Shown: one piece after another, positions 3,888 through 49,200 of the stretch
How the letters are laid out: each line of letters opens with the position of its first letter
How positions within the stretch are numbered: the stretch's first letter is position 1
The notes under the pieces: generated by a model
Databases searched by the model: none
The model's input: the letters and a program-made list of their open reading frames with translations, nothing else
What the model was told of the DNA's origin: nothing
Program-made: the position numbers and the translations under genes
Assembly: GCA_013265495.1 (NCBI GenBank)
Contig: MU057584.1
Span: 660,608 to 724,607 of the forward strand
Source of the DNA: Vicugna vicugna
Taxonomy: Eukaryota
Direction of reading: 5' to 3'
DNA length: 64,000 nucleotides

Positions 3888-4000
3888 GGGGGAGGTAATT
3901 AGGTTTATTTATTTATATATTTAGAGGAGGTACTGGGAATTGAACCTAGGCCCCCATGCATGCTAAGCATGTGCTCTACCACTTGAGCTATACCTCCTCC
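3888..4000 (-). mobile_element. Vic-1-type tRNA-Ala-derived SINE
   Basis: Reverse complement GG..GGTATAGCTCAAGTGGTAGAGC..CTTAGCATG..GGTTCAATTCCCAGTACC with A/B boxes and aaataaacctaattacctccccc tail. Confidence 0.85.
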
Positions 4001-6389: not shown

Positions 6390-6472
6390 TTTCTTTAATG
6401 GAGGTTCTGGGGATTGAATGCAGGACCTCGTGCATGCTAAGCACATGCTCTACCACTGAGCTATACACCCCA
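6390..6472 (-). mobile_element. Vic-1-type SINE (short form)
   Basis: ggggattgaatgcaggacctcgtgcatgctaagcacatgctctaccactgagctatac. Confidence 0.85.
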
Positions 6473-8367: not shown

Positions 8368-8480
8368 GGAGAGAGGTAATCAGGTTTATTTATTTACTTT
8401 TAACGGAGGTACTGGGGATTGAACCCAGGACCTCCTGCATGCGAAGCTCAAACTCTACTGCTGAGCTATACCTTCCCCGC
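8368..8480 (-). mobile_element. Vic-1-type SINE
   Basis: ggtactggggattgaacccaggacc...ctgagctatacc. Confidence 0.8.
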
Positions 8481-12525: not shown

Positions 12526-12630
12526 TGGGGGAGGTAACTCGGTTTATTTATTTTTAATGAGGTACTGGGGATTGACCCCAGGACATCATGCATGCTAAGC
12601 ATGCACTCTACCACCAAGGTATACCGTCCC
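12526..12630 (-). mobile_element. Vic-1-type SINE in Tigger1
   Basis: SINE head and tail; flanking ggactcacc(g/c)ttcta duplication. Confidence 0.8.
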
Positions 12631-13449: not shown

Positions 13450-13541
13450 TTATTTATTACTATTTTTAATGTAGATACTAGGGATTGAACCCAGGACCTT
13501 GGGCATGCTAAGCACACACTCTACCACTGAGCTATATTCCC
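13450..13541 (-). mobile_element. Vic-1-type SINE in Tigger1
   Basis: gggattgaacccaggaccttgggcatgctaagc...gagctata. Confidence 0.8.
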
Positions 13542-22044: not shown

Positions 22045-22177
22045 GGGGGGGTAATTAGGTTTATTTATTTATTTGGATTTTTTGTTGTTGTTGCTGCTAA
22101 TGGAGATACTGGGGATTGAACCCAGGACCTCAAGCATGCTAAGCATGGGCTCTCCCGCTGAGTTACACCCTCCCCTC
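22045..22177 (-). mobile_element. Vic-1-type SINE
   Basis: Typical head and tail. Confidence 0.8.
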
Positions 22178-27576: not shown

Positions 27577-28039
27577 AAGATTATGAAATATTTCTGGAAG
27601 TGGATTAGTGGTGACAGTTGCACAATACTGTGAACATACTTAATGTCACTGAACCATATATACACTTAAAAAGGGTTCAAGTGGTAAAATTTATGTGGTG
27701 CATATTTTACCACAATAGTAATAATAATTAAAAAAGAATTTGCAGAGGAGGAATGAGGAGCAAGATCCCTTAAAGCTGTTGTAAGGGCTTTGGCTTCTTC
27801 GTGGCCTGAGCTGATAGTCTGTAGGTCAGGGTGGTCTGACCCATTGAATATTGACAAGCTATTATCAGTTCTGGCTCCTATCAGCAGCTAGAGTGAGTTC
27901 AGTGACCCACACAGAGGGCATTTCTGGGTACACTTCCCCTAGTCCAGTGGGCTGAGGGGAGGTGGGATGTACTGTTCTGCAGGGATTCAAAGCAGACCTT
28001 AAACACTTGTGGCCGAATTAGATAGGACAGGGCAGTGCT

Positions 28040-28363
28040 AGGGCTGATGGGCGTGACTATCAGGTAGTTGAAGGCCCCGGGGCGTGGCTACAGTGAAGGG
28101 CAGGGCGGAATGCTTGCCAGGTGGTGAGAGGGGTGCTGGCGAGGTGTGTCGTTCCCCAGCCCACCCCACCCCCAACCCTCCCCCCGCCCCTGCTTCCGNN
28201 NNNNNNNNNNNNNNNNNNNNNNNNNNNNNNNNNNNNNNNNNNNNNNNNNNNNNNNNNNNNNNNNNNNNNNNNNNCCCCCGCCCCTGCTTCCGCCAGGCTT
28301 GAAATAGCCGCTCCCGAAGGCAGCCTCCTAGGCCCTAGGTCGGGTGACTTGTTGACCGGAGTT
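28040..28363 (+). promoter_or_regulatory. GC-rich proximal promoter/5'UTR of the SDR gene
   Basis: GC/KLF boxes (ggggcgtgg, gggcgg, ccccgcccc, ccccacccc) and CTTCCG ETS-like core just upstream of the ATG; interrupted by the N gap. Confidence 0.6.
28199..28274. other. Assembly gap (76 N)
   Basis: Run of n; identical cccccgcccctgcttccg on both sides. Confidence 0.99.
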
Positions 28364-28526
28364 ATGATGGAGTCGGAGTGGGATGCACTGAGAGTGCTGG
28401 GAGCAGTTACCGCCGTGTGTCTGCTGCTGTGGGCGACCTGGGGGGTGGTCTACACAGTCTATGTTTACCTGCTGCCCCAGGCGCGCCGGGGCGCCCCCTG
28501 GCTCCGGGCCCACGGAGCCTGGGCAG
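28364..28526 (+). CDS. SDR gene exon 1 ([54 protein letters not shown])
   Basis: ATG at 28364 (second ATG at 28367); hydrophobic anchor; ends GxWA + G|gtgagg donor, phase 1. Confidence 0.88.
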
Positions 28527-31500
28527 GTGAGGGAGGAGGGCTCCATGCCAGGCAGGTTGGGCTGGCTGGGGGGAGGGAAGGGGAAGGAGAGGCAGAAACA
28601 GGAACGAGGACAGACAGGTGTGGCCAGAGGATTCCTGGAAGCAAGACAGGTGAAGGCTGGAGCGAGAAGGTCAAGGGAGGCACGGGGTGCTTGAAGTCCC
28701 CAAACCTGTGCAGGTAAGCGGAGCAGGTGTCAGAGACCTGAGCCCACGAAGGATGAGGACAAGAACCAGGAGGAGCTGGATCTCAGTGAGGGGGGTTCCC
28801 AGAAAAGGCACAAAAACCCACAAGAGGGAGAATGGAGGGGATGACAGGGTGGGATCTGGTCGGGCTCCCCCACCTACTTCCTGCTCCTTCTCCTGTTTCT
28901 AGTGGTGACAGGAGCTACCAGCGGCATCGGCAGGGCTTATGCACACGAGGTGAGCCAGCGCTTGGAGCCTAGTGGGTGGTGGGAAAACTTCTCTTGTCTG
29001 TTTGCCTCTTGTCAGCTGCCCGTAAGAGACTGCGAATCGTGTGCTTTGTCTGCTTCCCTCAGACGTCCTCTCCCCTAGGAAGCCTTCCCTCTGGCCCCCA
29101 GGCTGGGGGCAGGTGTTAACACAGGGCTTCTACAGATCCTTGATGTTCTCCCACCGTCACCCTGATTTATTCATTCAAAACCTATTTATATGCCACCTCC
29201 ACGTGCCAGGCATCTTCAAGGTACAAGGGTTACAGTGAACAAAATCGATTTGAAAAAAATCAAAAGACCTTGCCCTCGCAAAGCTTCTGTTCTAGTGAGG
29301 GGAGACATGTGTAAATAAGATAAACAAGTACAAAGGACGGTGTGTCAAATGATTACACGGGTTAAGGAGAAAAATAAATCAGGAAAGGAGGACAGGGAGC
29401 CCTGGGGATGTGCAGGTTCCAATTTTTATAATAGAGTAATCAGAGAAGGTGTCACTGAGAAGGCAACAATGGGCAAAGACTAGAAGGAGGTGAGGGAGGG
29501 AGGTGAGGTGAAGGAATTTCCAGGGAGAAGAAACAGCCAGTGCAAAGGCCCTAGGTAGGGAGTGTTGCTTATTGGAGAAGCAGGAAAGGGGCCACTGTAA
29601 CAGTAAAAGTAAAAGGGAGAGGGGAGCTATGGGAGAGGAGGACAGAGATGCAATTTGAGGGCAAATCATGGGGAATCTGGTAGGTTATTGTGGGGACTTT
29701 AACATTTACTGAGAGAGATGGGATCTTGGGGGGGTTCTGAGTAGAAGAAGGATACGATACTATAGTGGGCGAGGGTGGAAGCAAGATCAGCTAAGAGGCT
29801 TTTGCAAAATCCAAGCAAGAGATCCTGATGATTTAGACCAGGATGACAGTATTAGAGGTATGAAAAGTACTGGGGATTTGTATTGATTCTATTAAACAGA
29901 CTGGAGGTGGAGTATGACTCCAAACTTTGGACCTTGTAACCTGAAACCTTGCTAAACTCACTTCATAGTTCTTTTTTTTTTTTTTAACTGAGTTATAGTC
30001 AGTTTACAATGTTGTGTCAACTTCTGGTGTACGCTCCTTAGTTCTTGTAGCTTTTTTGTAGATTTCTTAAAATTTTTCTGTGTAGACAATCATGTCATCT
30101 GAGTATAGAGACAATTTTATTTCTTCCTTTCCAGTCTGTATACCTATTATTTCTTTTTCTTGCCTTATTGTACTGGCTGGAAAATTAAATATGATGTTGA
30201 GAGGAATGCTAAGAGTGAATATCTTTGCCTTTTTTCCTGACCTTAGGGAAAAACCATTCAGGTTTTAGCCATTAAGTATAATGTTAGCTGCAGGTTTTTA
30301 AATGTATGCATGCGTGTATATATGTGTTTACATGACCTTATAAGGTTAAGGAAGATCTTTTCTACACCTAGATTGCTGAAAGTTTTTATCAAGGATGGAA
30401 GTTGACATTTGTCAATTAATTTTTCTTTGTCTGTTGAGGTACGATCATAGGGCTTTTCTTCTTTAGTCTGTTTATATACCAAATTACACCAATTGATTTT
30501 TAAAATGTTAAGCTAACCCTGCATTCCTGCAATAAGCCCCATTTGGTGATTATCTGTTATCCTTTTTCGATATTGCTGGATTTGATTTACCAATATTTTG
30601 TTGAGAATTTTTGTGTCTAAGTTTAGAGGGATATTAGTTTGTAGGGGTTTTTTTTAACTGAAGTATAATTGATTTACAATGTGGTGTCAGTTTCTGGTGT
30701 ACAACATAGTGATTCAGTTATACATATGTATTCTTTTCTGTTTCATTATAGGCTATTACAAGATATTGAATATAGTTCCCTGAGTTTGTAGTTTTCTTGT
30801 AATATCTTTGTTTGGTTTTTGCTATTAGGGTAATGCTGGCCTCATAAACTAAATTACCACAAGATTTTTGACCAAAATACCTCAAAGGATGGAGTTGCCA
30901 TTACTGAGATGGAGTTGAAATGAGGGGACCAGGTTTAGGGGAAAGGGGAAGGAGTCTAGTTCTGGATATTCGAAGTTTAAGATACCAATTAGGTATCCAA
31001 TTGAGAAGCATGCAGCCGAGAGGGTCCGCTCTGGAGTTCAGAGGGGTGGAGATGTACACTGAAGCATCATCAACATAACAATGCTACTTGAAGTTATGAC
31101 ACTAGAAAACAAACTTACAATTACCAGGGGGTAAGAGGGTAGGAAGGGATAAATTGGGAGTTTGGGATTTGCAGATACTAACGAGTATATATAAATTAGA
31201 TAAACAACAAGTTTCTTTTGTACAGCACAGGGAACTATATTCAATATCTTGTAGTGACCTATAATGAAAAGAATATGAAAAGGAAGATATGTATGTATAT
31301 GTCTGACTGAAACATTATGCTGTCCACCAGAAAGTGACGCAACATTGTAAACTGACTATACGTCAGTGAAAAGAAAAACAACTTTGCCTTAAGAAAAAAA
31401 ATTAAGTTATGAGACTAGATGAGACGCCCATGGCCCTGGGGGCCTATGGAGAGGGGCAGCACGATCTGAATCACCCCAAAGTGCTCCCTACTGAGACAAA

Positions 31501-34500
31501 GTAGGGGCAAAACCAGCGTGGAAAGTGAGGTCTCGGAAACCAGGTAAGGAATGCTTCCAAGCAGAGGCGTGATGAATGTGTCATTTGCTGCTGGGAGATG
31601 CTGAGAACACAGCACTGGATTTAGCAACACGGAAGTTATTGGTGACTAGAGTGGCTTGGGTGGCCTGGTAGGAGCAGGAGCCCAGCTGGAATGGAAGCAA
31701 GAGGGTATGGGAGGAGAGCCAACGTCAACAACCCTTTCTTTGAACATTGAGTAAAGTGGGATGGGGTGATAAGAAATGGCGCAATACCTGAACAGAGAAG
31801 ACGGGAGTGATTCTGGCAGGTTTGCAAGCTGATGGGAATAATCCAGAAGAGGGAAAAGTTGTGATGCAGGGGAAGACGGGAGAAAGCTGAAGTGATGTCC
31901 TTGATGGCCAAGAAGGGAGGGGAGGCTAGAACACAAGAAGCCAGGCAACCCTGGGGGAAAGGGAGAGTACTTGGGTCTAGATGCGAGTCAGCCAGTAGCG
32001 ATGGCTGCTCTGAGTCATTGCTGTCTGGGGACTGGTCTGTCCCAGCACCACGCTGTGAGCCCCATGAGGGCAGGGCTGTGGCTGTGCCACCAAGTACAGG
32101 GCCAGGCACAAGTGGATTCTGGGCAAATGTTTGTTGAATGAATAAATGCCCTTCACAGCATCAACCTCTAAGATGCATGAGGCTGTTGAGATGTTTGTGT
32201 CCAACCTCCCCCCAAAGCTGATGGACACTCAGCCCCACGTAACACATCACCCTCAGACATGCAGGTTGAGAGGGTCAGACATGCACCAAAATGCTGCTCA
32301 GCACCCATTCCACAAATGTCTGCTAACTCTGTTTCAAGGGGTAGGGCATTCAAGGCAGCAGAAACAGCATGTGCAAAGGCCCAGAGGCAGGAAAATTCAG
32401 AAGGTGCTTTTGGGGCTGTTGAACTGCCTGCTGAGCCTGGATTCCCACAGAGGGCCACTGGCAGGAGGAACAGCTGAAGACTCAGGCTAGACCCAGGCCA
32501 CTCAGGGCCAGGGTGATGAGTGTGGTTTTATCTCCAGGACCCTGGGGAGTCAAAGCAGGTTCTGAGTAGGAAAGGCAGGAGCAGGTTTGTGTTTTAGAGA
32601 GAGCTCTCTGGCTACTGAGAGAGACCGAGTCTATCTTGGGCATCCGGTGTTTCCAGCACCATCCAGCAAAGAGCAAGGGCTGAGTAAACACATTTTGAAG
32701 AAATGCATGAAGGAAGGAATGCAAATCAATGGATTCTTTATATCACTGAGAATAAAAGCCAAAGTCTTAACTGGGCCGTCCGGAGTCCCATGATTTAGTT
32801 CCCTGTCCACCTAGCTGAGACCCTGGGTACCGGCCAAGTCATTCAGTGCACACCGTACTGTTTGCTGTCCTCTAAGCTGCCAGCCTTTGTGCAAGGGCCT
32901 TTGCACTTGCTGCTCTCTCTGCCTGGAATACTATTTCCCTAGAACGCGTGCTCCAGGAAGGCGGACTTTCCGAGTTTCTCTTTTGTTCACCTCTGCATCC
33001 ACCAGTGCCTGCAACACTGCATCAGACTGTCAGCATCCGGTAACTATTTGTGGAATTGGTGAGTAAGTCAATGAATGCATCCCCCGCAGCTTGCCCGGAG
33101 AGGTCTGAACATCGTCCTCATCAGTCGAGACCCGAGCAAGTTGGAACACGAGGCCAAGGAGATAGGTGAGGAGGGGAGAGGGGCTGGGAATGTCCTGGGG
33201 CGATACCAGGGCATGGCCTGGGGGTCATAGAGGGGCATGGTCGGGGCGGGTGCAGGGAGGGGCCTCCCTCTGCATCTGGGGCCATCGAAGGGGGGGGTAG
33301 GGGCAGGAACTGAACAAGGACTGGGGTGGGATGGGGCAAAGGTGGGACTGAATTCCAGCTAAGGTTCTGTCTTCCACTGCCCTGTCCCCCTCCCCAGAGC
33401 GGCTTTATGGCCGAAGCACCCGAGTCATCCAGGCTGATTTCACCGGGGGCTTGGAGATCTACGAGCCCATTGAGGCAGGACTGAAGGACCTGGAGATTGG
33501 AATACTGGGTATGTCCCCATGCCCTCTGGGAGGAGTGCTGCCCTCAATATGCTCACCCTGACCCAGAACTCCCTTGTGCTCGCCCTCCCTTGGTCGCCAC
33601 CCTGTCCCCCGGGAACTGTTTGGAGTGACGCAAACAATGTGTCCCCTCTCACTCAGTGAACAATGTGGCCAAGCAATATGCAGACAACTTGGGTAAACTG
33701 CTCGACTCTGAGGACATCGCCCAAGTAAGTAAAACCGAGCACCCGTCCGTGGTCACCTCTTCTTCATGCTGCTCCCTCTGTAGTTTCAGGCAGGTAATCT
33801 ATTGCCTTCCACTGGAAAAAATGATCTGAAAGCTACAAATTTATGACGTCTAGGATGTGAAGGAGGCTTCCTTCCATGGGGCGCCCTTCTGCAGTGCCCA
33901 ACCGTACAAGCGTTCAAGCTGAGGCTGCTTCTCTCTGCCCTTTTGTATTCCCTGGTGCCAACTTTAAGGGGACATGACTCACGTAGGAAAGTCAGTGCCT
34001 CAGTTTCGTATCTAGAAAATGGGAATGCATATTTTTGCTGGCCTCATAGGGCTGATATGACAATGGAATAAAATAATGCACATAAACCTAAGCTGTGTGC
34101 TCCATAAATGTTGGCTATTCTGTGTTTGATTTATTTCTTTTTTTTTTTTTAAATAGAGGTACCTGGGAATTGAACCCAAGACCTTGGGCATGCTAAGTAT
34201 GAGCTAAACCCAGCCACCCCCATGAGTGTTGGCTATTATTAGACATAGACAAAACAGAAGATTAGGATGACTTTTAAATTTTACATATTATTATTTCAAA
34301 AGTAATGCATGGCTCATTTTATAAAATTTAAGAGAGGCAGCCAGTGTCTCCTCCCTCTGGTGTTAGAGGAAGTTGTGGCTGGAGATGAACCCTGCATTTG
34401 AGAACGATTAGGAAACTGGATAAAAGATTTTTTAACACCTTTATTGTGGTATGGTTCCTGTACAGTAAACTACAATATTTCAAATGTACAATTTGATTAA

Positions 34501-37500
34501 TTTTGATAGATATCTACACCAATGAAACCACTACCACAGTCAAGATAGCTAACATTTCCATCACTCTCCGAAAGATGCAATTTTCAGATTCCTAATTTAT
34601 CCCTTCCCACCCCTCTTTACCCTCTGGTAACCCTAAGTTTGTTCTCTTTGTCTGTGAGTCCATTTCTGTTTTGTAGATAACTTCATTTGTGTCCTTTTTT
34701 TTTTAAAGATTCCACATATAAGCCATATCATATGGCATTTTTCTTCTCTTTCTGGCTTACTTTACTTAGAATGATGATCTCCAGGTCCATCGATGTTGCT
34801 GCAAATGGCATTATTTTATTCTTTTTATGGCTGAGTAGTATTCCATTGTGTGTGTGCGCGTGCACACACGTGCCACCTCTTCTTCATCCAGTCTTGTGTT
34901 GATGGACTTCTGGGTTGTTTTCACCTCTTGGCTATGGTATATAGTGCTGCTATGAACACTGGGGTGCATGTGTCTTTTTGAATCATATTTTTCTCCGAGT
35001 ATATGCCAGGAGTGGGATTGCTGGATCATATGAAGTCAATTTTTAGTTTTTTAAAGAATCTCCATACTCTCCTTCACAGTGGCTGTACCAATTTACATTT
35101 CCACTGACAATGTAGGAGGGGTCCTTTTTCTCCCTGCCTTCTCCAGCATTTATGGTTTGTGCACTTTTTAATGATGGCCATTCTGACTGGTGTGAAGTGA
35201 TACCTCATGGTAATTTTGATTTGCATTTCTTTAACAATTAGTGATGTTGAGCATCTTTTCACGTGCTTGCTGGCCATCTGGATGTCTTCTTTGGAGAGAT
35301 GTCTATTTAGGTCTTCTGCCCATGGATAAAAGATTTTTAAAATAACTGTTTGAAGGTATCATAGAACTACTAAGGCGATGAGGAATACTGCACCAAGATT
35401 TGAGGGAAGAGAGACTCCAAGAGAGGTAAAGCTGATATTTGAAGCACCATTTTCCTTCAAAGTGGATGAGTGTTTAAGAGGCTAAGCAAGAGTTTTCATC
35501 ATACGGTTGGAGCCACAACAAGTAATGTAGTTCAAAGCTTTGGAAAAAATCCCAGGCTTTAGGTTAGGGTCCTGAAAACGATAATCTAAGAGTCAGGGTA
35601 AAGTAGGTTTCACAGGAACTGAAGCCAGATTTCAAACTATCTCAATGCTCTTTGGGATTAAGTTGATCTGATGTTTTAGCGCCCCCTAGTTTAGCTGCCT
35701 GGGAGAAGCAAAGCAAAACAAAATCTATCATTTTTAGAGAAAAACCGATGTAGTCCAGAGCCTTGAATTAGCAATACAGTTTTTAAATATTAAATACCCA
35801 GCACCCAACAAAATATAACCTGGAACATTAGAAGAAAAATCGTGATTGAGAGCAAAAGAAATAATAGATAATGTAAATAGGTCTACATGTGACCAAGATA
35901 ATGGAAACAGCAGCACAGATGTTTTTGAAAATACATCCCGCCTCTCTCTCTCTTTTTCTTTAATTGGAGTATTGTTGATTTACAGTGTTACAGTTAGTTC
36001 CTGGTGTACAGCCCAGTAACTCAGTTATACACATTTTTTTTCGTATTCATTTTCATTATAGGTTATTACAAGCTATTGAATATAGTTCCCTGTGCTATAA
36101 AGTAGGACCTTGTCATTTATCTATTTTGTATATAGGAGTTTCTAATCTGCTAATCCCAAACTCCTAATTTATCCCTCCTTCCTTTCCCCTTAGCTAACCA
36201 TAAGTTTGTTTTCTATGTCTGTCTGTCTATTTCTGTTTTGCAAGTAATTTCATTTGTGTAATTTTTTAAAGATTCCACATATAAGTGATATCATATGCTA
36301 TTTGTCTTTCTCTGTCTCACTTACTTCACTTAATAATATGGCGATCTCCAGGTCCATCCATGTTGCTGCAAGTGGCATTATTTTATTCTTTTTAATGGCT
36401 GAGTGGTATTCCACTGTATATATATACCACGACTTCTTTATCCAGTCATCTGTTGATGGACATTTAGGTTGCTTCCACATCTTCGCTATTGTAAATAGTG
36501 CTGCTGTGAACATTGGGGTGCATGTAAGCATAGATTTTTTTTTTAAAAATCATGACATAGATAATATAAAATTTACCATTTTAAAGTGTGCAACTTAGTG
36601 GCATTACATTCATTCACAGTGTTGCACAGGCATCACCACTATCTATTTCCAGAACTTTTTCATCACCTCAAACAGAAACTCTGGTCCTATTAAGCAGTAC
36701 CTCCCCAGTCTTCCCTATTCCTCACCCCTGATAACATCTATTTCTACTTTCTGCCTCTGTGAACTTGCTAATTCTAGATGCATTATACAAATGGAATCAC
36801 AGAATAATTTTCCTTTTGTGTATGGCTTATTTTACTTACCACAGTGTTTTCAATTTCATCCATGTTGTAGCAGGTATCAGAACTTCATTCCTTTTATTTT
36901 CTTTATTTTTAAGTTATGGCAAATGTACAAAACATAAATCTTGTCATTTTTAACTATGTTGAAGTGTACAGCTCAGTGGCATTACTGTACATTTACCTTG
37001 TTGTGAAACAGTCACCGCTATCCATCTCCAGAATGTTTTCAGTATCTCACACTGAAACTCTGTACCCATTAAACAGTAACCCCCCCATCCCTCCCTACCC
37101 ACAGCTCCTGGCAACCACCATCCTACTTTGAAAAAATTTTTTCTTTTGGATTTTTTTTGGGGGGGGTAATTAGGTTTCTTTCTTTATTTGTTTTACTATT
37201 TTTTTTAAACGAATGCACTGGGGATTGAATCCAGGACCTCTACATGCTAAGCATGCACTCTACCACTGAGCTATACCCTCCCCCATCCTACTTTCTGTCT
37301 CTATGAACTTGACTATTCTAGGTGCCTCATATAAGTGGAATCATACAGTATCTGTCCTTCTGTGCTTGGTTTATTTCTAGTGTAGTATAGTGTTATCAAG
37401 GTTCATCCATGTTGTAAAACATGTCACAATTTTATTCCTTTTTAAGGCTGAATGATATTCCATTGTATGTATGTATCACATTTATCTGTTGATAGACATT

Positions 37501-40500
37501 TGGGTTGTTTCCACCTTGTGGTTATAATGAATAATGATGCTATGAATGTTAGTCTACAAATATGTTTGTGTTCCTGCTTTTAATTCTTTCAGGTATATAC
37601 CCAGAAGTAGAAATGATGGATGCAAGATTAGTTTGCCTATTCAGGGTCCCTTGAGATTCCCTATGAATTTTGGGGTGGGTTTTCTACTTCTGAAAAAAAA
37701 TGCTGTTAGGATTTTTATAGAGTTTGTACTGAGTCTGTAGATCACTTTGGGTAGTACTGTAGTCTTAGCAATATTAAGTCTTCCAATCCACGTACATGGG
37801 ATGTCTTTCTGATGTCTTCTCTAATATGTTTCAGTAATGATTTGTAGTTTTCAGTATATGTCTTTCCTTCTTGCTTAAGTTAATTCCTAAGTACATTTAT
37901 TCTTTTATTCTTTTTGATGCTATTGCAAGTGGTATTTTTTTCATAACTTCCCTTTTGGGTTGTTCATTGTTCATCTGGAAAAATGCAACTGATTTCTTGG
38001 TGCTGATTTTGTACCTTGTGACTTTGTGAATTTGTTTATTAGTTCTCACTTTTTTTGTGGAATCTTTAAACTTTCTCCGTGTAAGATCATATAATCTGCA
38101 AACAGAGATAATTTTGTTTCTTCCTTTCCAATTTTTGAATGCCTTTAACTTCTTTTCTTGGCCTAGTTGCTCTGGCTAGAACTTCCAATACTATATTGAA
38201 TAGAAATAGCAAAAGCAGGAAACCCTTTCACCATTTCACTGTTGAGTGTGATGTTAGCTGTGGGCTTTTTATAGTATTATATGTATTATTATGTGCATTA
38301 TCCATATATTTATTATGTTGAGATAGTTTCCTTCTATTCCTAGTTTGAGTGTTTTAATTATAAAAGGCATTGAAATTTGTCCATTTCATCTAGATTATCC
38401 AATTTATAGGTATCCGGTTGTTCACAGTGCTCTCTTTAATCGTTTTTCTTTTTTTAATTTTCTTCCTTGATTTTTTTTTTTACAATCGATGAACCAACAT
38501 GGGCACATTATTATCAACCAAAGTCCATAGTTTACATTAAGGTTCACTCTTGATGTTTTACATTCTATGAGCTTTGACAAATGCATAATGACATGTAGCC
38601 ACCAATATAGATATAGTTTCAAATAATTTCATTGCCCTAAAAATCCCTTGTGTTCCATCTGTTCATTCCTCCCTCCCTCCCTCTCCCCAAACCCCTGGAA
38701 ATCATGATCTTTTTGTTGTTTCTGTAGCTGTGCTGTTTCCAGAATGTCATTTGGAACCGTACAGTTTGTAGCCTTTTCAGACTGGCTTCTTTCATTTAGT
38801 AATATGTCTTTTAAATTTCTTCCATGCCTTTCATGGTTTAATAGATCATATTTTTTTTACTGCACATATATTTTTAATTTACATATATGTACTGTTCATT
38901 GTTTTTAAGAACGTTTAGAACTTTAGCCTTTTAAACTTACATAGTTATCAAAGGCATAAAGGCACCCACAAAATAAGAATTAATTCAAAAAGATACATAC
39001 ACCCTGCTATTAACAGCAACATTATTTATAATTGCCAAGATATGGAAGCCTCCTAAGTGCACATAGATAGTTGAACAGACAATGAAGATGCAGCATACAT
39101 ATATATATGATGGAATACAGCTCACCCATAAGAAAGAAGGATATTTTGCCATTTGTGGCCCTTCATTCACATTTTGTTTTTCACTTCAAAAACTGGAATT
39201 TTATAGCTGGCAGAGACATTTCCATTACATCAAAAACAACAAAATACCTAGTAATAAACTTAACCAAGGAGGTTACCTGTACTCTGAAAACCAAAATGAC
39301 ACAAAGAAATGGAGAGATTTCTTGTGCTCTTGGATTGGAAGAATCAACACTATCAAAATGGCCACACTACCCAAAGCAATCCACAGATCCAATGCAACCC
39401 CCATCAAAATACTCACAACATTCCTCACAGAACTAGAAGAAACAATTCCAGAATTTATAAGGAACCACAAAAGACCCCAAACAGCCAAAGCAAACCTTTG
39501 TAGGTCTCTTTTTTTCCCTCTTTCTTCTTTTTGTTCTCTTTTCTTATGGTTTGATGACTACAGAAGGCCCTTTAACATTTGTTGTAAAGCTGGTTTGGTG
39601 GTGCTGGAATCTTTTAGCTTTTGTTTATCTGTGAAGCTTTTGATTTCTCCATCAAGTCTGAACGAGAGCCTTGCTGGATAGAGTATTCTTGGTTGTAAGT
39701 TTCCCCCTTGCATCACTGTTAATATATCACTCCACTTCCTTCGTTTCAGAGTTCTGCTGAAAAATCAGCTGATAACCTTATGGGAGTTCTTTAATCCTTT
39801 TTATTTCTGTAGAATCAGTATAATGTCCAACTTTCATTTCTGGTTTTAGTAATTTCAGTATTTTTTTCCTTAATCAATTTTGATAAATGTCAAATTTGTT
39901 CATTTTTTCAAAGAATCAACTTTTGGTTTCCTTGATTTTCTTTATTATTTTTTCAATCTCTATTTTATTTTTCTCTGCTGTAATCTACTAGTTATTTTGT
40001 TCTGTTAGCTTTCAGCTTACTTTGTTCTTCTTTTTCTAGTTCCTTAACTTATAGAGTTAAGTTGTTGATTTGAGGTAAGTTTTTCTTTTTTAAAGCATAT
40101 GTTTACAGCTATTAATTTTCCCCTTAGCACTGCTTTTACTGTGTCCCATAAGCTTTGGAATGTTGCATTTTAACTTCCATTTTCATTTGTCTCTAAGTAT
40201 TTTTAAATTTCCTTTGTAATTTCTTCGTTGATTCATTGGTGTTTGAGAGTTGTGGAAATTCTTTATATATTATGGATATTAATCCCTTATCAAATGAATG
40301 ACTTGCAAATGTTTCCTGCCATTTTGTGAGTTACCTTTTCACTCTGTCAGTAGTCTTTTAATATACAGAAGCTTTTAATTTCCATGACATACAGTTTATC
40401 TATTTTTCTTTCGCTGCTTGTGCTTTTGTTATCACCCAACTTTAATGACACACAACAAATGCAGAATATGAAGTATTTTCTTGAACTTACAGATCATTTC

Positions 40501-43314
40501 ACAAAACATAAATTCAACAAATATCAGACTCCAAATGATATAATTTATTCTCTTTCCATAGTGAAACTAAGCTAGAAATAAATTATTTAAAAAGTTGGGG
40601 GAAACTTATGTGTTTGGAAATTAGATAATACACTTAAAGAAAGTTCCTGGGTCACAAATGACAATAAAGCTAGGAAACGGTTTGAGCTAAATGATACTAA
40701 AATCCTACACATCAAAATTTGTGGGATGCAAAGAAAATATATAAACTTAAGTGCATGCATTAAAAGAGTAGGCTGAAAATCAATTATTTAACTGCCCATC
40801 TCAGGAAGTTAGGAAAAAAAAATCAAAGAAAACATAATGATGGAAATAATGAAGATAAGAGCAGCCATTCATGCAACAGAATATATTGAAGCTTTCAAAA
40901 CAGAGCATTTAGAAAGTCAAAACTTTGCACTGAAGGACTTTTAAATAAAATTGACAAAACCTTTTAGATTGATCAAGAAAAGATGAAGAGAAGGCACAAA
41001 TAACTAATATCTTAAATGAAGGTAAAGGTACCCATGGAGTTATTAAAAATATAAGAAGGTCCTTCTAAGTCTTAATGGCAACAATTTGAAATGTTAGATT
41101 ACTCAAGGCATTTCCTAGGAAACATGGTGTATTCAAACAAATACAAGAAAAAGTAAAAAACCTGACTATTGCTTTATCTGTTCAAGAAATTGAGTCCTGT
41201 AAAATACTGTAAAACTTCGTCACAATAGTGGTTACTCTTGGAGGGGTCATGTGTGGAAAGAAGCATGGGTGGGGGCTTCTCAGGAGTTGATAATTTTATT
41301 TTTTAAAAACTGGATGCTGGTTACATGGCTGTATCCAGCTGGTGAAAATTCATGAAGCTATACACCTGTGATATGGGCACATTTCAGGATCTATATTGTT
41401 CTTCATTAGAAAGTGTCAAAAAGATAAAAATATAAAACCTTCCCATAAATAAAATCTCCAGGCCCTGATGCCTTTATCAGTGAGCTGCCAAACACTTAAG
41501 GTCAAAGTAGTAACAATCTTATCCAAATTGTTTCGAAGACTAGAAAAAGAGCACACACTTTCCAACACATTTTATGACGGGTTATAACCATCATACCAAA
41601 ATCTGACAAGGAAATTATAGGAAAGTAAAATTTGAGCTTAATCTCCTTCAGGAACTTAAATACAAATACCCTGAACAAAATAATTAGTTAAATATGTCCT
41701 GTGATATATGAAAAGAATCACATATCATGATCAAATGAGCTTTATTCCAGGAATGCAAATGATTCAGAATTTTAAAATCAATCTAGATATTAACAGAAAA
41801 CATGGGAGAAAAACTGTATGATCATCTGGATAGATACAGAGAAAGTAACAATTAATTGCTAAGAGTTAACACACGCTCATTATTTTTTAGAAAGTAAACT
41901 AGGAATAGAGAGAAACTGCCTTGATCTGACTGACTGACTTCAAAGAACTTGCAACTAGCATTATACCTATTCTATGAGATTGGGAACAAGACAAGGAAGC
42001 CTGCTATGACCTCTTCTGTGTAACATTTCATGGGAGGTCCTAGGCAGTGACATAAGATAAAAAAATAAATCAACGTTATAAAGCCAGGAAAGGAAGAAAT
42101 ACAGATATTATTTGCAGACGAAGAGACTGTATATGCAGAAAATCCAGAAGAATTTATTCATCATTTCAGTGAATTCTGTATCTGTATACCAGTAATGAAC
42201 AATTAGAAAGTAACTTTTAAGATAAGATTGATTTATTTAATTATCTATTTCTCTATCTATTTATTTCTAATGGCAGTCCTGGGGATTGAACCCAGGACCT
42301 CATGCATGCCAAGCAGGCACTCTACCACTGAGCTATACCCTCCCCCCACCTATGAATTTTAAAAATGCAAACAACCCAGTTGAAAAATAGGAACTAGGCT
42401 TGAACAGGCACTCTACAAAAGAGAAAATTCAAGCAGCCAATGAATATACAAAAGTGTACTCAACCTCTTTCTCATTAGGGCACTACCAATTAACACCAGA
42501 GTGAGCTTCAAGCACGCAGCCACGACAATGGTTAACAGTAAAGTATTGACAGTGCCAAGTGTTGCTGGGGATTGTGGAATAACTAGAATTCTTAAGCTTT
42601 GCTAGTGGGCATATAAACTTGGACAACTGGGGGGAACTGCTTGGCAGTACCTCCTAATAAGCATTTTCTGCAATCCAGCCATTTCAGTCCTGGTTGTATA
42701 AGAGTGCGCATGTGCGCCGGAAGACACACACAAGGATGTTCCTAGATAAGTCGTTTGTGATAGCTCCAAACTGGACACGACCTCAATGTTAGTCAGCAGT
42801 TGATCAGACCCATAAAGCATGCTCTCGTCATACGATGGAAAATTATCACGATGAACACGAATGAAGAACTTCTGCTACACGGAATGGGAATGAATCTTAT
42901 AATGTTTGGCAAACAATGTCAGAGATACAAGAATACATACTGTATGACTCCACTTATATGAAGTTCAGAACCGGACAAAACTATTCTGCAGCATGTTAGA
43001 GGTCAGGACAGTGGTTAACTGGGGGAAAAGCAAGAGTAATGACTGCAAGAGATGACGAATCTGGAAAACTGTCAAACTTTGTTTTTTCAGATGGGTAGAG
43101 GTTAAAGATTTGGATTCATTTTTTACAGTAAAGATTCGTGCACTTTGGCATTGTATGGTATACGTTTATAAAAAATTTACTGATCAAAAAATCCAAAGAA
43201 AGAAGTTTATGAAGTGAAGGTGAAAATCTCCCTTCTCCCTCCAATCCTATAACCCAAAAGTGACCACAAATTTAAAGTGTGGTAGGTAGTTTTCCCTCTG
43301 TGCATATAGGAGGA

Positions 43315-43345
<31 letters not shown>

Positions 43346-46197
43346 TTAAATTCTAATAGAGGCAGCCTATTGTTCTGTGTTTTGCCTTTCACAAGAGGCA
43401 TATATCTTGGGGGTCATTCTCATCAGAATAATGAATGAACCACTCTTTTACTTGTTGCTCAGTGATCCATCCATTGGCTACACTGTGTTTATTTAGTCAT
43501 CTCGGTATTGATGAGCATTCAGGATGCTTCCTGTTATATGTGACTACAAATTGTGTTGGAATGAATACCTCTGGGCATGTGCATTTCTCACATGTGTGAG
43601 TATCTTGGAAAGGAATCACATTTCCAGAAGTAGGTCAAAGGGTAGGTGCATTTTAATTACTTATATATGTGGAATCTCAAAAAAAACCCCACACAAATGA
43701 ACTTATTTACAACACATAAACAGACTCACGGACATAGAAAACAAACTTATGGTTGTGGAGGAGTAGGGGGTAGGAAGGGATAAATTGGGAGTTCGAGATT
43801 TGCAGGTACTAACTACTATATATAAAATAGGTTTCTACTATATAGCACAGGGAGCTATATTTAATATCTTGTAGTAACCTATAATGAAAAATAATACGAA
43901 AAGGAATATATGTATGTATATGCATGACTAAAACATGCTGTACACCAGAAATTGATATGACATTGTAAACTGACTATACTTCAATATATATATATATTTT
44001 TTAAAAAAGGTAGGTGCATTTTAAATTCTATAGATCCTACTTTAAAGAGCAAAAAATGTGTTCCACCATGAAAGAAAAGTAAGCTAGAAAGTAAGAAAAT
44101 GTGGGGGTTGTGCCAGGGCTGTGGAAGGGAAGGACTGATTGGTTCTGCTTTCTTTCCCCAGAAACTCTCGGATATTATAAACTGCAACATGATGTCTGTG
44201 GTCCAGGTAAGACTGCGCTCAGAGGGACTGGGTTCAAGTTTAGCATAGCTCTGACCACTCTGGGTGGTCCCCAGCATCCCCCAGCACTGGGCCCACCCAG
44301 CCTGGAGAAGTGCTAGGGGAATATTCCCAGAGGGAAGGTAGGAAGATGGGAGTGAACTTGAGGAGGCTGCAGGAGTCTGAGTAGGCGGAAGTGTTGGAAA
44401 GGGAAAGACGCGGCCCTCCCCATTCCTCCTGCAGATGACTCGAATCGTCTTGCCACAAATGGTTACCAGGTAAGAGGCAGTCTCTTTGTCTTCCACTCGG
44501 GATCTTATCCTCATCCAACCTCCGGGCTTTTTCCATTCCCCAGACGTCCCATTCCGCTGTCCCACCCACATTCCCAACTCTTACCCGTCTCTCTGATCCT
44601 TCTCAGCTTAGGATGCCGATGAGGGATGGAGGTGGGGAAATCACTCGGACCATCTCTTCTCCACTGGCAGTAACCGCCTTCCAAATAATGCTTCCTCCTC
44701 CAGGCGCAAAGGCATCATCATCAACATATCTTCGATAGTGGACAGGAACCCCTTTCCGTTTATAGCAATGTATGGAGCCACCAAGGTACCCAGACCCACA
44801 GACGGGGCGAGGGCTGGATGCCATGCTGAAATTCCCGCAGTAGCCTTTAAGTCTGGCATTGAAGGTTGTGGTGGAAAATACCCCGAATGGGTGTGCGTGA
44901 TGTATCACCTGCGTCTGAGGCTATAAATAGGTCAGACAGACATCTGGGGCACCGTCCAGTAGGCAAGCGAAATGGTTTGTTTGTTTTTTTAAGAGAAACG
45001 GAGGCTAGGGGTGAAGAGAACCTGTGAGGTGGGAGGAGGGCAGGGAATTCAGAGACTGGCCGGGGTAGAATGGAGAGTGAGTGTGTGGAAACAGAAGGAG
45101 GGCTTGGAGCGGGGACGCATTCACGTGTTAACTTTGAAGCCTTGGACCGTGAGCGGGGGCGGCGGGTGGGGGCCTCCGGGAGCCTAGGAGTGTTCTAGGA
45201 TCTGGGACGGCCCTGGGGCGACGGCGGACGGGAGGAGTCTGCCCAAGGAAAGCTCTTGGTCCTGTGGCCCTCCTTCTCCTTCTCCGCAGGCCTTTGTGCG
45301 AAACTTCTCCGCGTCTCTGAAAGCAGAGTACAGCTCCGAGGGGGTCCTCGTGCAGGTGCCTGACTCTGCAGGGAGGGAGCTCAAAAGGGCCGAGGCGACA
45401 GTGGCAGCTCAGAAGGGCAGGGGGTCTGACAGGGGGAAGGAACTTAGAGACCGCGGAGGCTCTTAGGGGCAGCGGCCGGGGCCGGGGCCGGGGAGCGGGA
45501 GGCGGGCCTGAGAGAGGTTTGCTACCCGGCGGAGCTTCCGTGGAGCAGCGCTCAGAAGCCGTGTGCTCTCGAGGGGGCGTGGCCTAAAGAGGCGTGGTCT
45601 GGGCTGCCTGGGGGCGTGGCCTCAAGGATCAGCGCTCGGAGATTCGCGAGTGAACCAGACCCCGGGATGCTCAGACAGGGCCTGGGAGCTTACGCTGGGG
45701 GGAGGGGAGTTCATTTCTTGATCCCCTTCCTTCCTGCAGACCGTGAGCCCCTTTATAGTTGAAACAAATATGACCTTGGCCATGAAAAATCGATTTCTGG
45801 TGGTGAATGCTCACGACTTCGCTCGGCAGGCATTGGACACGCTGGGCCTCACCTCCTATACCCCCGGGTGCCTCCGCCACGCCTTGCAGGTGCTTTCCTG
45901 GGGCAACCCTAGGCAAAGAGCTGGACGGGACAGTCCCTGGCCCGGATCCACTAGTCCTCAGAAAGGGGGAGACATCCAGAGAAGGGAGGGCCGCCACCCT
46001 GGGCTGGGGAGCTGGGAGAGGAATTGGGAGACGCAGGAATGGGGTGTATCTTGAACTTTGGTATCTCTCCTTCCCAGGGTCTCCTGCTGGCTATCTTCCT
46101 GCCCAGTTGGTTTTGTTGCAGTCGCGAAGGAGTAAAGCTTTTGTCTCTGTTTGCGAATTGGAGTAGGGAACAGTCACTTCCTCGAAGAACTCGATAA
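28364..46197 (+). CDS. Spliced 11-exon gene: SDR-family oxidoreductase, HSD17B12/HSD17B3-like (very-long-chain 3-oxoacyl-CoA reductase-like; probable hsd20b2 orthologue), 320 aa
   Basis: join(28364-28526,28903-28949,33090-33165,33398-33508,33657-33724,44162-44206,44435-44469,44704-44785,45290-45355,45740-45889,46078-46197) = 963 nt. All introns are GT-AG with compatible phases and there are no internal stops. The protein has an N-terminal hydrophobic segment, [14 protein letters not shown] (TGxxxGxG), LISRD, ILVNNV, INISS and MYGATK (YxxxK). Confidence 0.93.
28903..28949 (+). CDS. SDR gene exon 2 ([16 protein letters not shown])
   Basis: Polypyrimidine tract + tag acceptor; Rossmann Gly motif; GAG|gtgagc donor; 47 nt. 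Confidence 0.95.
29160..29940 (-). mobile_element. L2 fragments (intron 2)
   Basis: ttcattcaaaacctattta...gtgcaaaggccctaggtaggg L2-like motifs. Confidence 0.65.
31100..31400 (+). mobile_element. L1 3'UTR fragment
   Basis: L1 3' end with A tail; flanking aagttatga duplication. Confidence 0.8.
33090..33165 (+). CDS. SDR gene exon 3 ([25 protein letters not shown])
   Basis: cccccgcag acceptor; G|gtgagg donor; 76 nt. Confidence 0.95.
33398..33508 (+). CDS. SDR gene exon 4 ([37 protein letters not shown])
   Basis: tccccag acceptor; G|gtatgt donor; 111 nt; ADF and LEIGIL family motifs. Confidence 0.95.
33657..33724 (+). CDS. SDR gene exon 5 ([23 protein letters not shown])
   Basis: ctcactcag acceptor; CAA|gtaagt donor; 68 nt; NNV motif. 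Confidence 0.92.
34433..35322 (-). mobile_element. L1 3' fragment in intron 5
   Basis: ORF2 relic [24 protein letters not shown] tggataaaagattttt at ~34417 and ~35323. Confidence 0.85.
35955..43200. mobile_element. Cluster of nested L1 fragments in both orientations, plus SINEs (37159-37285, 42260-42347), in intron 5
   Basis: ORF2 relics ([42 protein letters not shown]) and 3'UTR motifs. Confidence 0.8.
43319..43345. repeat. (TG)n microsatellite
   Basis: Direct observation. Confidence 0.95.
43655..43990 (+). mobile_element. L1 3'UTR fragment
   Basis: L1 3' end; flanking ggtaggtgcattttaa duplication. Confidence 0.8.
44162..44206 (+). CDS. SDR gene exon 6 ([15 protein letters not shown])
   Basis: tttctttccccag acceptor; CAG|gtaaga donor; 45 nt; contains the Asn of the SDR tetrad. 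Confidence 0.93.
44435..44469 (+). CDS. SDR gene exon 7 ([12 protein letters not shown])
   Basis: cctcctgcag acceptor; AG|gtaaga donor; 35 nt. Confidence 0.93.
44704..44785 (+). CDS. SDR gene exon 8 ([27 protein letters not shown])
   Basis: cttcctcctccag acceptor; AAG|gtaccc donor; 82 nt; catalytic Ser and YxxxK. Confidence 0.95.
45290..45355 (+). CDS. SDR gene exon 9 ([22 protein letters not shown])
   Basis: ttctccgcag acceptor; CAG|gtgcct donor; 66 nt. Confidence 0.94.
45740..45889 (+). CDS. SDR gene exon 10 ([12 protein letters not shown]...GCLRHALQ)
   Basis: ttccttcctgcag acceptor; CAG|gtgctt donor; 150 nt; PxxVxT motif. Confidence 0.93.
46078..46197 (+). CDS. SDR gene exon 11, coding part ([39 protein letters not shown])
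   Basis: ctctccttcccag acceptor; LPSW motif as in the family; TAA at 46195-46197. Confidence 0.85.
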   Translation, partial: GLLLAIFLPSWFCCSREGVKLLSLFANWSREQSLPRRTR

Positions 46198-46299
46198 AAA
46201 GCCTTCGAGAGGCATGGGCACTTGTCCGTCGTCCCCAGCTCCCCCGTTCCCTCCAGAATCCTGGACCAGGGCTGCTGATGTTAGAAAAGATGGCCCACA

Positions 46300-49200
46300 C
46301 GTCGAAACAGACGGACAAGCAGGCCAGTGGAACAGAACTGGATCCCCAAACGCCTGGACATTTAGTGACAACTGTGGCATCTCAAATCTTTGGCAGAAAG
46401 ATGGAGTTTTTAATATGTGGCACTGAAACAACTAGATAGACATTTGGAGAAAAACAAATATATACATATACACACATACATAAATTGTAGCAATGATGGT
46501 TGCACAACTTTGTGAAACACTAAAAAACACTAAATTGTACACACTAAAAGGTATGTGAATTATATGTCAATAAAAAACTTTTAAAAGAGACCCCCCCCGT
46601 GTGTGTCCAAATATATCTCTCTATATAATTAGATCCAGTCCTCACACCCTGTACCTGCATAAACTTCAAATGAATCAGAAATCCCTGTGTAAATATGGAA
46701 ACATAACAAGTAGAATCCATGAATTTCTTTCCATCTTGGAAGTGGGAGAATCTTTCTAATTACTACTGAAAATTAAAAGCAGCAAAAAACAAAAAAACCC
46801 AACCTAACAAATATCAAACTTTAGTTAATGATATGCAGGCTAACTTATTTAGAAAAAGTGTACTGATGTCAGTAACTTACTTCGAAATGCATTAAAAAGT
46901 TAGATTAATTAATGGATGAATAGAGTGTATAGAAATATGGTTAGACAAGTATGGTAAAATGTTAGTAACAGAATCTAAGTGGTAGACACACGTTCCCTGT
47001 ACACTTCTTTCAACTTTCCTGTGTGTTTAAAATTTTTCATAATAAACTGCTGGGGAAATCCAGGAGCAATACAATTAAATTTATAAATAAAACAACTTAA
47101 GTAGATTTAGAAATTATTTAAGAAAAGATGACACCATAAACAAAGTAAAACTGTGATGATCTCAGAGAAAATATTTACAAGTTACATCACACACAAAATG
47201 TTTATCTCCTTAATATATAAGAAATAGTCTAAAAGCTCAATGTTTTAAGGTGTGCACAAGAAATGGACAGTTCATAGAGAAACAAATATGAGTGTTCCTT
47301 AACTATATGAAAAGGTGCTCAACTTCACTCATAATGAGAACAATGCCAATTTAAAACCACTTATGAAAGTGACAAAAATTCCTAAGCTGGGAAACACACT
47401 CATGCATTGCTGGTGGGTATGCAAAATGATACAACCTCCACGGGGAGAAATTTGACAATAGCTAACTAACAAAACAACATATGCATTTACTCTCATACCT
47501 AGCAATGCTGCTTCCAGGAATATACCCTAAAGACCCATCTCCATGGAAACAGCAAGACCTCACTTTGGGGGCAAGGTTGATACCTTCAAAGAACAAAAAG
47601 GAGGCCCATATCTGTGTAACAGGTGGGGCTATTTTTAATTTTCTATTTTGAAGACCATCTGGACCTGGATTTTTGTGGCAAAGTTTTAAACTGTGGATTA
47701 AATTCTCTGATAGATACAAGAATATTCAGATTTCCTATTTCTTCTTGGGTCAGTTGTGTTTAAGTTCTGTTTCAAAAAACTTACCCTTTTCATCTAAATT
47801 TCCAAATGTACTGATATGAATTGTTTCATAATACCTTCTTATTTCCCTTTTCATGCTTGTAGGATCTATAGTGATGTCTCATTTTGATTCTTGATATTGA
47901 CAATTTTTCTTTTTTCTTCTTTGATCTTGAGAGAGATTTATTGATTATATTAAGCTTTTCTTTTCTTTTTTTTAACTGAAGAACAGTCTGTTATAATGTG
48001 TCAGTTTCTGCTGTACAATACAATGACCCAGCCATGCATATACATACATATATTCATTTTCATATTATATTAAGCTTTTAAATAGACAGCTTTTGGTTTA
48101 TTGATTTTTATGTTGTATATTTGTTTTCTGTTTTGTTGATTTCTGCTCTTGCCTATATCATTTTATTTTCTACTTTGTTTTTAATTTGTTTTTCTTGTTC
48201 TACCTTCTTAGATATTTGATTTTTATATTTTACTGTCTTGATACATGCATTAAAAGCTATACATTTCCCTCTAAACATAATGTTTACAGCATCCACAAGT
48301 TTTGCTATGTTACATTTTTATTGTTACTCAGTTAAAAATGATTCCTTATTCCCATTTTTATTTCTTCTTTGATTCACAGGTTATTTAGAAGTATGTTGTT
48401 TAATTTCCAAACATGGAGCTATTCTAGTTATCTAACTACTAGAGTACTCTAATTTAATTCAAAAGCTATTGGAGAATATATACTATACAATTTTCATCCC
48501 TTGAAGTTTTTTAAGGCTTAATTTATGGCCCAGAATATGGTCTGTTTTGTAAAAGACCTTTCTTTATCCTGATAAATTTCCTTGCTTTGATATTCTGTTC
48601 TGTTTGAAATTAATATAATATATAATAAAAATAATATAATGATAACATAGATCTACTGTCAACATATTCCCTCCATTTTTTTCTCAGAAATTCCTTATTT
48701 CACCTTCATTTTTGAAGGATAATTTTGCAGAATTTTTTTCTCCCAACACTTTAAATATTTCAGTCCACTCTCTTCTTGATTACAGTTTCTGAAGAGAAGT
48801 CAGTGCAATTCTTATCCTTGTTCCTCTGTAGGTAAGGTGTTTTATCCCTCTGGCTTGTTTCAGGCTTTTATTCTCTATCTTTGTTTCTCTCTTCTTTGTG
48901 TGTGGGAGAGAGGAGGTAATTAGGTTTATTTATTTCTTTTTTTAATGGCTGTACTGAGGACTGAACCCAGGACCTCGTGCATGCTAAGCATGTGCTCTAC
49001 CACCTCCCCAGTCTCTAGCTTTACTTTTCTGTAATTTCTGTGGTATCGTGCTTGGTGTTCTCTGAGCTTCCTAGATCTGTGATTTGGTGTCTGACATTAA
49101 TTTGGGGCAAATTCTCAGTCATTATTGTCGCAAATATTTCTTCTGTGCCTTTCTTTCTTCTCCAATTACACATATGTCACAACTTTGGTAGTTGGCCTAC

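Follow-up and report, generated by a model that had tools for sequence, protein, structure and literature searches.

A probable camelid copy of hsd20b2, the gene of 20beta-hydroxysteroid dehydrogenase type 2, in the genome of Vicugna vicugna

Introduction

The fish enzyme 20beta-hydroxysteroid dehydrogenase (20beta-HSD) type 2, encoded by hsd20b2, reduces cortisone to 20beta-hydroxycortisone, and this reduction is a clearance step that follows 11beta-HSD2 (PMC3551853). Tetrapods have been said to lack hsd20b2 (PMC7064643). We examined a stretch of 64,000 nucleotides from Vicugna vicugna (contig MU057584.1, positions 660,608 to 724,607 of the forward strand; C452:660608-724607 in the 2.03-Gb assembly), called the window below, which contains an intact gene of the short-chain dehydrogenase/reductase (SDR) family. 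On balance the locus is probably the camelid copy of the vertebrate gene that is called hsd20b2 in fish.

The gene is already known in mammals. A dromedary protein (P0003) is held by RefSeq, and the names hsd20b2 or 20beta-HSD2 are in use for the cattle and sheep copies, which disposes of the novelty that an earlier note, made by a model from the letters of the window, had claimed for a mammalian gene. Tokarz and colleagues are said to have mentioned non-fish orthologues as early as 2012. The gene is listed among the liver markers of Hanwoo cattle (PMC13381022), is identified with ENSBTAG00000030882 / LOC508455 in a study of cattle embryos (PMC8795813), and is represented by 18 peptides of '20beta-hydroxysteroid dehydrogenase type 2' in a proteome of the sheep liver mitochondrial fraction (PMC6382166); a paper on buffalo cites Tokarz 2012 for LOC508455.

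Results

Structure of the gene

The exons were located by tblastn of P0003 on the window, which gave 11 collinear plus-strand pieces between 28367 and 46194, and their edges were refined by hand from the flanking bases. The resulting open reading frame (ORF) occupies window positions 28364-46197 (+) and comprises 963 nt in 11 exons, encoding 320 amino acids (aa); the only in-frame stop is the TAA at its end. Every one of the 10 introns is of the GT...AG type, so that each of the 20 splice dinucleotides is canonical, and the intact, in-phase coding sequence of 320 aa described in the earlier note was recovered in full. The translation is identical to P0003 at 314 of 320 alignment columns (98.1% identity), and a frame-consistent match over 11 exons cannot be chance. 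The exons and the features directly adjoining them are given below in window coordinates.

28199..28274, no strand, assembly gap of 76 N, 90 bp 5' of the start codon, within a GC-rich stretch
28364..28526, +, exon 1, both ATGs and the predicted hydrophobic helix of the N terminus; phase 1 at its end
28903..28949, +, exon 2, glycine-rich cofactor motif TGxxxGxG
33090..33165, +, exon 3, strand 2 and R83, a basic residue typical for NADP(H)-preferring SDRs
33398..33508, +, exon 4, QADFTGGxxIY segment
33657..33724, +, exon 5, NNV(A) motif, with Ala in camelids and Gly in most relatives
44162..44206, +, exon 6, catalytic Asn164
44435..44469, +, exon 7, 35 nt
44704..44785, +, exon 8, catalytic Ser191/192, Tyr205 and Lys209
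45290..45355, +, exon 9, tblastn match to P0003
45740..45889, +, exon 10, substrate-loop region with P235, the STNMT-type motif and FARxAL...GCLxHALQ
46078..46197, +, exon 11, C-terminal helices and TAA stop
46569..46574, +, candidate polyadenylation signal, the first AATAAA 3' of the stop

Two adjacent ATGs stand at the start of the coding sequence, at 28364 and 28367. The second, with A at -3 and G at +4, is the one at which the dromedary RefSeq model begins; that model is likewise full-length and has 319 aa. The 76-N gap lies upstream of the start and the promoter and 5' untranslated region (UTR) are therefore incomplete, perhaps together with a non-coding first exon. Two other deposited Camelus proteins, P0001 and P0002 (C. 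dromedarius and C. ferus), are faulty models that start within intron 1 and translate intron; exon 6 is skipped in one, and in one the C-terminal end comes from a different frame of exon 11.

Position within the family

A full-length search with P0003 gave 2589 matches, of which the best 120 were listed and are the basis for the taxonomic spread described here. They included camels, other artiodactyls, bats, horses, rhinoceros, xenarthrans, afrotherians, hares, pikas and marsupials, the tarsier as the sole primate, four hystricomorph rodents (guinea pig, chinchilla, degu and porcupine), turtles, two lizards and frogs. The gene had been thought to be retained by camelids and possibly other laurasiatherians, a restriction that the xenarthran, afrotherian, hystricomorph, lagomorph, tarsier and marsupial copies contradict. 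The closest named non-tetrapod relatives among the 120 were fish hsd20b2 proteins, annotated as 'hydroxysteroid (20-beta) dehydrogenase 2', with approximately 50-53% identity over at least 90% of the length and E values from 8.6e-99 downward.

No human, mouse, carnivore, whale, dolphin or bird protein stood among the best 120 of the 2589 matches, though fish proteins at E ~1e-84 did, in keeping with the earlier statement that no human counterpart was known. From these 120 matches we infer that anthropoid primates, murid rodents, carnivores, whales and birds have no intact annotated copy, which would imply several independent losses. The hippopotamus copy is intact, while whales and dolphins are absent from the best 120. 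Three to four distinct copies each were seen in Tamandua, Tenrec, Echinops, Cavia and Dasypus among the matches listed, and within a species the records of the copies give the same 'longest contig' length. Tandem duplication within single lineages, as is frequent among clearance enzymes, is suggested by this. In the Vicugna genome the only matches were this locus and HSDL1, and by this search the gene has one camelid copy, at this locus.

The names attached to these proteins vary. P0003 is called 'very-long-chain 3-oxoacyl-CoA reductase-B' in RefSeq and its counterparts in other mammals carry '-B' or '-B-like' forms of that name, while some of the best 120 rows bear the automatic names '17-beta-HSD type 3-like' or 'HSD17B12'. 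No HSD17B3 or HSD17B12 orthologue from a well-annotated species was present among the 120.

A maximum-likelihood (ML) tree was calculated under LG+C20+F+G4 from 63 rows and 323 columns, the rows being chosen by hand across taxa, without fragments or isoforms and without most of the 425 proteins collected. Paralogues were gathered through the 150 best library representatives and cluster look-ups, which provided HSD17B3 (including Camelus P0271) and invertebrate HSD17B12. The look-ups, made for 20 proteins, gave no vertebrate HSD17B12; these were obtained instead through the HSD17B12 exon of the Vicugna genome, the translation of which led to named vertebrate HSD17B12 proteins (alpaca 100% identical over the exon).

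The window gene was placed in a 46-row clade with support of 100/97 that contained HSD17B3 and the hsd20b2-like genes. Five lines meet there at one fork (a polytomy): HSD17B3 (100/100), ray-finned hsd20b2 (100/99), the amniote genes including that of the window (99/94), one frog sequence and one shark sequence. The window and dromedary genes form a pair (100/100) inside the artiodactyls (100/97), and the branching among mammals agrees broadly with the species tree. Vertebrate HSD17B12 constitutes a separate clade (100/99) that groups with invertebrate HSD17B12.

Two assignments were rejected on this tree. Union of the window gene with vertebrate HSD17B12 was 62.0 log-likelihood units worse, with a p of 2.1e-5 in the approximately unbiased (AU) test (the groups for this and the two further AU tests below were set post hoc, from the first tree); and the 100/100 HSD17B3 clade excludes the window gene, Camelus having an HSD17B3 of its own (P0271). 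Judged by its sequence the gene belongs to the HSD17B3/hsd20b2 branch, not to that of HSD17B12, and is certainly neither HSD17B12 nor HSD17B3, which agrees with the earlier opinion that the protein is too divergent to be the mammalian orthologue of either.

The motifs TGATSGIG, QADFTxGxxIY, STNMT and FARxAL...SGCLSHALQ are common to the amniote and fish hsd20b2 proteins and differ in HSD17B3 and HSD17B12, so the likeness to teleost hsd20b2 that the earlier note had named was found in the aligned proteins. The extra residue of QADFTxGxxIY occurs also in HSDL1 and in several invertebrate proteins, and does not mark the clade as had been supposed. Orthology with fish hsd20b2 is quite likely, and is favored because a single gene of this kind and a separate HSD17B3 are present in each lineage, the best named matches outside tetrapods are fish genes and the motifs are shared. 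It is the simplest reading of the sequences, of which the protein tree alone is no proof.

Features of the protein

The Pfam domain adh_short (PF00106) was matched by residues 52-243 of P0003 with an E value of 5.1e-42 and 144 bits, against a cut-off of 26.6. In the window protein the cofactor motif reads T57-G58-x3-G62-x-G64 and is accompanied by R83 after strand 2 and by N134-N135, and the tetrad is complete with N164, S191/S192, Y205 and K209. These catalytic and cofactor residues are kept in 28/28 aligned tetrapod rows. The most hydrophobic 19-residue stretch begins at residue 11 and has a mean Kyte-Doolittle value of 2.11.

An AlphaFold model calculated from a 52-row alignment had a mean predicted local distance difference test (pLDDT) score of 94.1 and a predicted template modelling (pTM) score of 0.91. 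It has a single long helix at the N terminus (residues 2-35), a Rossmann core of seven strands and helices at the C terminus. The nearest solved folds found by Foldseek were NADPH-dependent SDRs, bacterial 7beta-hydroxysteroid dehydrogenase and HSD17B13, with E values of approximately 2e-18 and template modelling (TM) scores by target of at most 0.86; this structure search found no solved structure of a close relative. The gene thus encodes a classical SDR with a predicted N-terminal membrane helix and Rossmann core, an NADP(H)-type site and the full Asn-Ser-Tyr-Lys tetrad. The tetrad, the TGxxxGxG motif and the N-terminal anchor had all been named before; the residues are intact, and the anchor corresponds to the hydrophobic stretch from residue 11 and the predicted helix 2-35.

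Two positions near these motifs are unusual in camelids. The NNAG-type motif reads NNVA, with Ala at residue 137 (exon 5) for the usual Gly, and residue 206 (exon 8), next to the catalytic Tyr, is Gly where Ser is usual. The Ala of NNVA was also observed in 4/28 tetrapod rows and 1/11 fish rows, its bearers including guinea pig, hare and one fish.

Transcription was assessed from sampled sequence words. Of the 276 words sampled from window positions 44100-46700, shares of 0.30 and 0.29 are present in two RNA-Seq runs (X17 and X18), compared with at least 0.89 in DNA runs. Exons 6-11 together with the 3' UTR as far as the first AATAAA account for approximately 34% of that interval. The share of words in RNA-Seq approximates the exonic share, which hints at expression.

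Introns and neighboring genes

Two repeat-bearing introns of the gene, and the matches to the Rfam transfer RNA (tRNA) model across the 64-kb window, are as follows.

28950..33089, no strand, intron 2, 4.1 kb, with a repeat of ~280 bp resembling a short interspersed nuclear element (SINE) at 31098-31382
33725..44161, no strand, intron 5, 10.4 kb, with copies of long interspersed nuclear elements (LINEs) and tRNA-derived SINEs
3925-3997, 4629-4700, 6399-6470, 8404-8475, 12558-12628, 13470-13541 and 22101-22172, tRNA-like matches 1-7
27224-27299, 37210-37280, 42271-42342, 56091-56162, 57694-57765 and 61035-61107, tRNA-like matches 8-13

The introns carry the heavy transposon load that had been ascribed to them. 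For window positions 39000-39700 (701 bp, intron 5) a first look at the Vicugna genome found 6950 candidates, and the 40 that were scored were 89-93% identical; a 1401-bp query containing the ~280-bp repeat of intron 2 gave 13942 candidates genome-wide. The 13 tRNA-like matches all exceed the gathering score, with 35-60 bits (60.5 and 56.5 for the top two), and 2/13 lie within intron 5. As 13 in 64 kb far exceeds a plausible number of real tRNA genes, the matches most probably represent the heads of SINEs derived from tRNA. No tandem repeat scoring 80 or more was found in window positions 27000-47000. Among the other window ORFs of at least 80 aa, 96 of 131 were scanned, the remainder overlapping the GC-rich exon clusters of the gene itself, and 0/96 had a Pfam match at E <=0.01.

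Neighboring genes were sought by a Pfam scan of ORFs of at least 150 aa in 100 kb on each side (150/154 ORFs; flanks L022-L034, C452:630608-824607). Upstream these were a KAP-family NTPase, a TRAPP subunit and BLOC1S3, the last at L024:9160-9774 (+) with a Pfam E value of 6.2e-48 and stopping 227 bp ahead of the window. Downstream were a Sec6-type exocyst gene (L025, -), a gene with kinase and UBA domains, a creatine kinase and a TPR protein. The G+C content is 49-62% in the flanks and 30-40% over much of the window. This order probably corresponds to the NKPD1-TRAPPC6A-BLOC1S3-EXOC3L2-MARK4-CKM-KLC3 block of human 19q13.32, which would provide a precise site for seeking a human remnant and for a comparison of synteny with fish. 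A turtle homologue, P0089, named 'T-box transcription factor TBX10', had offered TBX10 as a lead; the 49 matches of a T-box search of the genome included 0 on C452, and the true neighbors are the genes above.

Discussion

By analogy with the fish enzyme, the camelid protein may be an endoplasmic reticulum-anchored enzyme, mainly of the liver, that, with NADPH as cofactor, converts the C20 ketone group of glucocorticoids of the cortisone type into a 20beta-alcohol for clearance; we hold this function tentatively, at somewhat less than an even chance. The N-terminal helix would anchor the protein in the membrane of the endoplasmic reticulum, and cortisone would be converted to 20beta-hydroxycortisone in an NADPH-dependent reduction as a clearance step. 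In the standard SDR catalytic scheme the four tetrad residues have defined roles. Tyr205 would accordingly be expected to give the proton, Lys209 to lower the Tyr pKa and hold the nicotinamide ribose, the Ser to stabilize the carbonyl and Asn164 to hold the proton relay.

A wider proposal concerns livestock. Cattle excrete 20beta-dihydroprednisolone in excess of the parent drug, and the paper names no gene of the SDR family in question (PMC4189600); the paper on 20beta-dihydrocortisol in horses has 0 mentions each of Tokarz and zebrafish (PMC5587574). Neither names the gene described here. It is conceivable, and in our judgement rather doubtful, a link not drawn in the papers searched, that in camelids, ruminants and horses liver membrane HSD20B2, not only carbonyl reductase 1 (CBR1), accounts for a large part of the 20beta-reduction of glucocorticoids of the cortisone and prednisone types, and that its loss in anthropoid primates, murids and carnivores explains why 20beta-dihydro metabolites are dominant in some livestock and not in people.

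Several observations weigh against the hsd20b2 reading and its extension to steroid clearance. In the horse, which makes much 20beta-dihydrocortisol, the 20beta-reduction of cortisol was attributed to CBR1 (PMC5587574), and in open-access literature text no activity test of any mammalian member was found. The Ala for Gly in the camelid form of NNVG, and the Gly after the catalytic Tyr, are unusual residues near conserved motifs. The protein evolves fast: for similar pairs of species its ML tree paths are two to three times as long as those of the paralogues, the path from window to hippopotamus being 0.35 compared with 0.18 for HSD17B12 (alpaca to hippopotamus) and 0.11 for HSD17B3 (camel to takin). 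Between window and Camelus there are 5 differences in 319 coding codons and 2 in 68 intronic codons, rates that are indistinguishable with so few sites (Fisher p 0.61, run with 69); the intronic codons are hand-checked intron stretches translated by the mis-modelled proteins P0001 and P0002. Strict orthology is also weakened by the tree. Forcing the 39 hsd20b2-like rows into one clade lowers the log-likelihood by 3.63 units, with an AU p of 0.081 that is marginal and not a rejection, and a clade of the amniote genes with HSD17B3, 4.71 units worse, has an AU p of 0.257 and is not rejected either. Of the earlier proposal of orthology with hsd20b2, the best named fish matches, the motifs and membership of the shared 100/97 clade stand; strict orthology, given the five-way fork and these two values, is no more than likely.

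The same two AU values leave some room for an old paralogue in its own right, either the sister of HSD17B3 or a third gene of the branch, that would act on another steroid substrate such as 17-keto or 16-ene steroids in liver. In pig liver, the signal of a probe annotated as LOC508455-like ('putative steroid dehydrogenase KIK-I') was reduced in boars with high androstenone, which would fit such a substrate. This history would require reciprocal losses, however, and two hsd20b2-like types besides HSD17B3 were present in no sampled lineage. The amniote motifs are those of fish hsd20b2 and not of HSD17B3, and in similarity the sequences of frog, shark, bichir and reptiles are intermediate between the fish and amniote groups. 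We regard a separate paralogue as improbable.

An equally small chance is given to the function contained in the RefSeq name, a second 3-ketoacyl-CoA reductase for the elongation of very-long-chain fatty acids beside HSD17B12. The fold, the cofactor site and the endoplasmic reticulum-type N-terminal helix are common to both proteins, and a protein-interaction listing in the buffalo paper puts LOC508455 with elongation enzymes. The gene nevertheless lies outside the HSD17B12 clade, with which its union was rejected, and the substrate-loop motifs differ, STNMT and GCLxHALQ standing in place of ATKLA and NGYLIHSLM. A conserved HSD17B12 is also kept in every sampled species, and the absence of most primates, murids and carnivores from the best 120 matches fits a dispensable clearance enzyme better than one of core lipid synthesis. 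That the camelid copy is en route to loss, its frame still open and selection gone, would be in line with its fast evolution, the similar coding and intronic difference rates and the two unusual residues, and is nonetheless very unlikely for a gene with canonical splice sites throughout, a full-length dromedary model, every tetrad and cofactor residue kept, an exonic share of words in RNA-Seq and a model pLDDT of 94.

For annotation the hsd20b2 reading has little consequence, the gene being already modelled in camels and the name hsd20b2 in use for cattle, except that the RefSeq label 'very-long-chain 3-oxoacyl-CoA reductase-B' points at the wrong paralogue. Intact copies in many mammalian orders, turtles, lizards and frogs speak against the claim that tetrapods lack hsd20b2 (PMC7064643). 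If the mammalian enzyme does reduce glucocorticoids at C20, this would bear on species differences in cortisol clearance, on 20beta-dihydroprednisolone as a marker for residue control in cattle (PMC4189600, PMC5557569) and on the fitness of human and mouse models for livestock steroid metabolism.

Comparison with related enzymes

CBR1, which is also called '20beta-HSD', is a cytosolic protein (PMC5587574), in contrast to the membrane helix predicted for the camelid enzyme. The Vicugna copy of HSDL1 (C10843:7422009-7425485, -) is built differently from the gene described here, with much larger exons, one of which spans approximately 150 residues of the SDR core, and Phe replaces its catalytic Tyr (FSASK). 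HSDL1 is expected to be 'inactive', which fits this Phe.

HSD17B12 (very-long-chain 3-oxoacyl-CoA reductase) is of the same family and lends its name to the camel protein in RefSeq. Its Vicugna copy lies elsewhere, at C4577, and vertebrate HSD17B12 proteins are 38-43% identical to P0003. Exon 10 of the window gene coincides at both boundaries with the Vicugna HSD17B12 exon L011:1501-1650, each being 150 nt, and the intron positions shared with HSD17B12 that the earlier note had stated hold for these two boundaries of the one exon compared. HSD17B3 (testosterone 17beta-dehydrogenase 3) is the nearest paralogue, with the same architecture and a place in the same 46-row clade, and is distinguished by TGAGDGIG, one residue fewer in the ADFT segment, STPMT and GCLxHEIL, at 34-38% identity to P0003.

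The closest system is teleost Hsd20b2, the zebrafish enzyme of Tokarz et al. (2012/2013), for which alone activity on cortisone is documented in the literature found (PMC3551853). The camelid protein has the same size, N-terminal helix, tetrad and motifs, at approximately 50-53% identity, and the mammalian proteins differ from the teleost enzyme in evolving faster and in having lineage-specific tandem copies.

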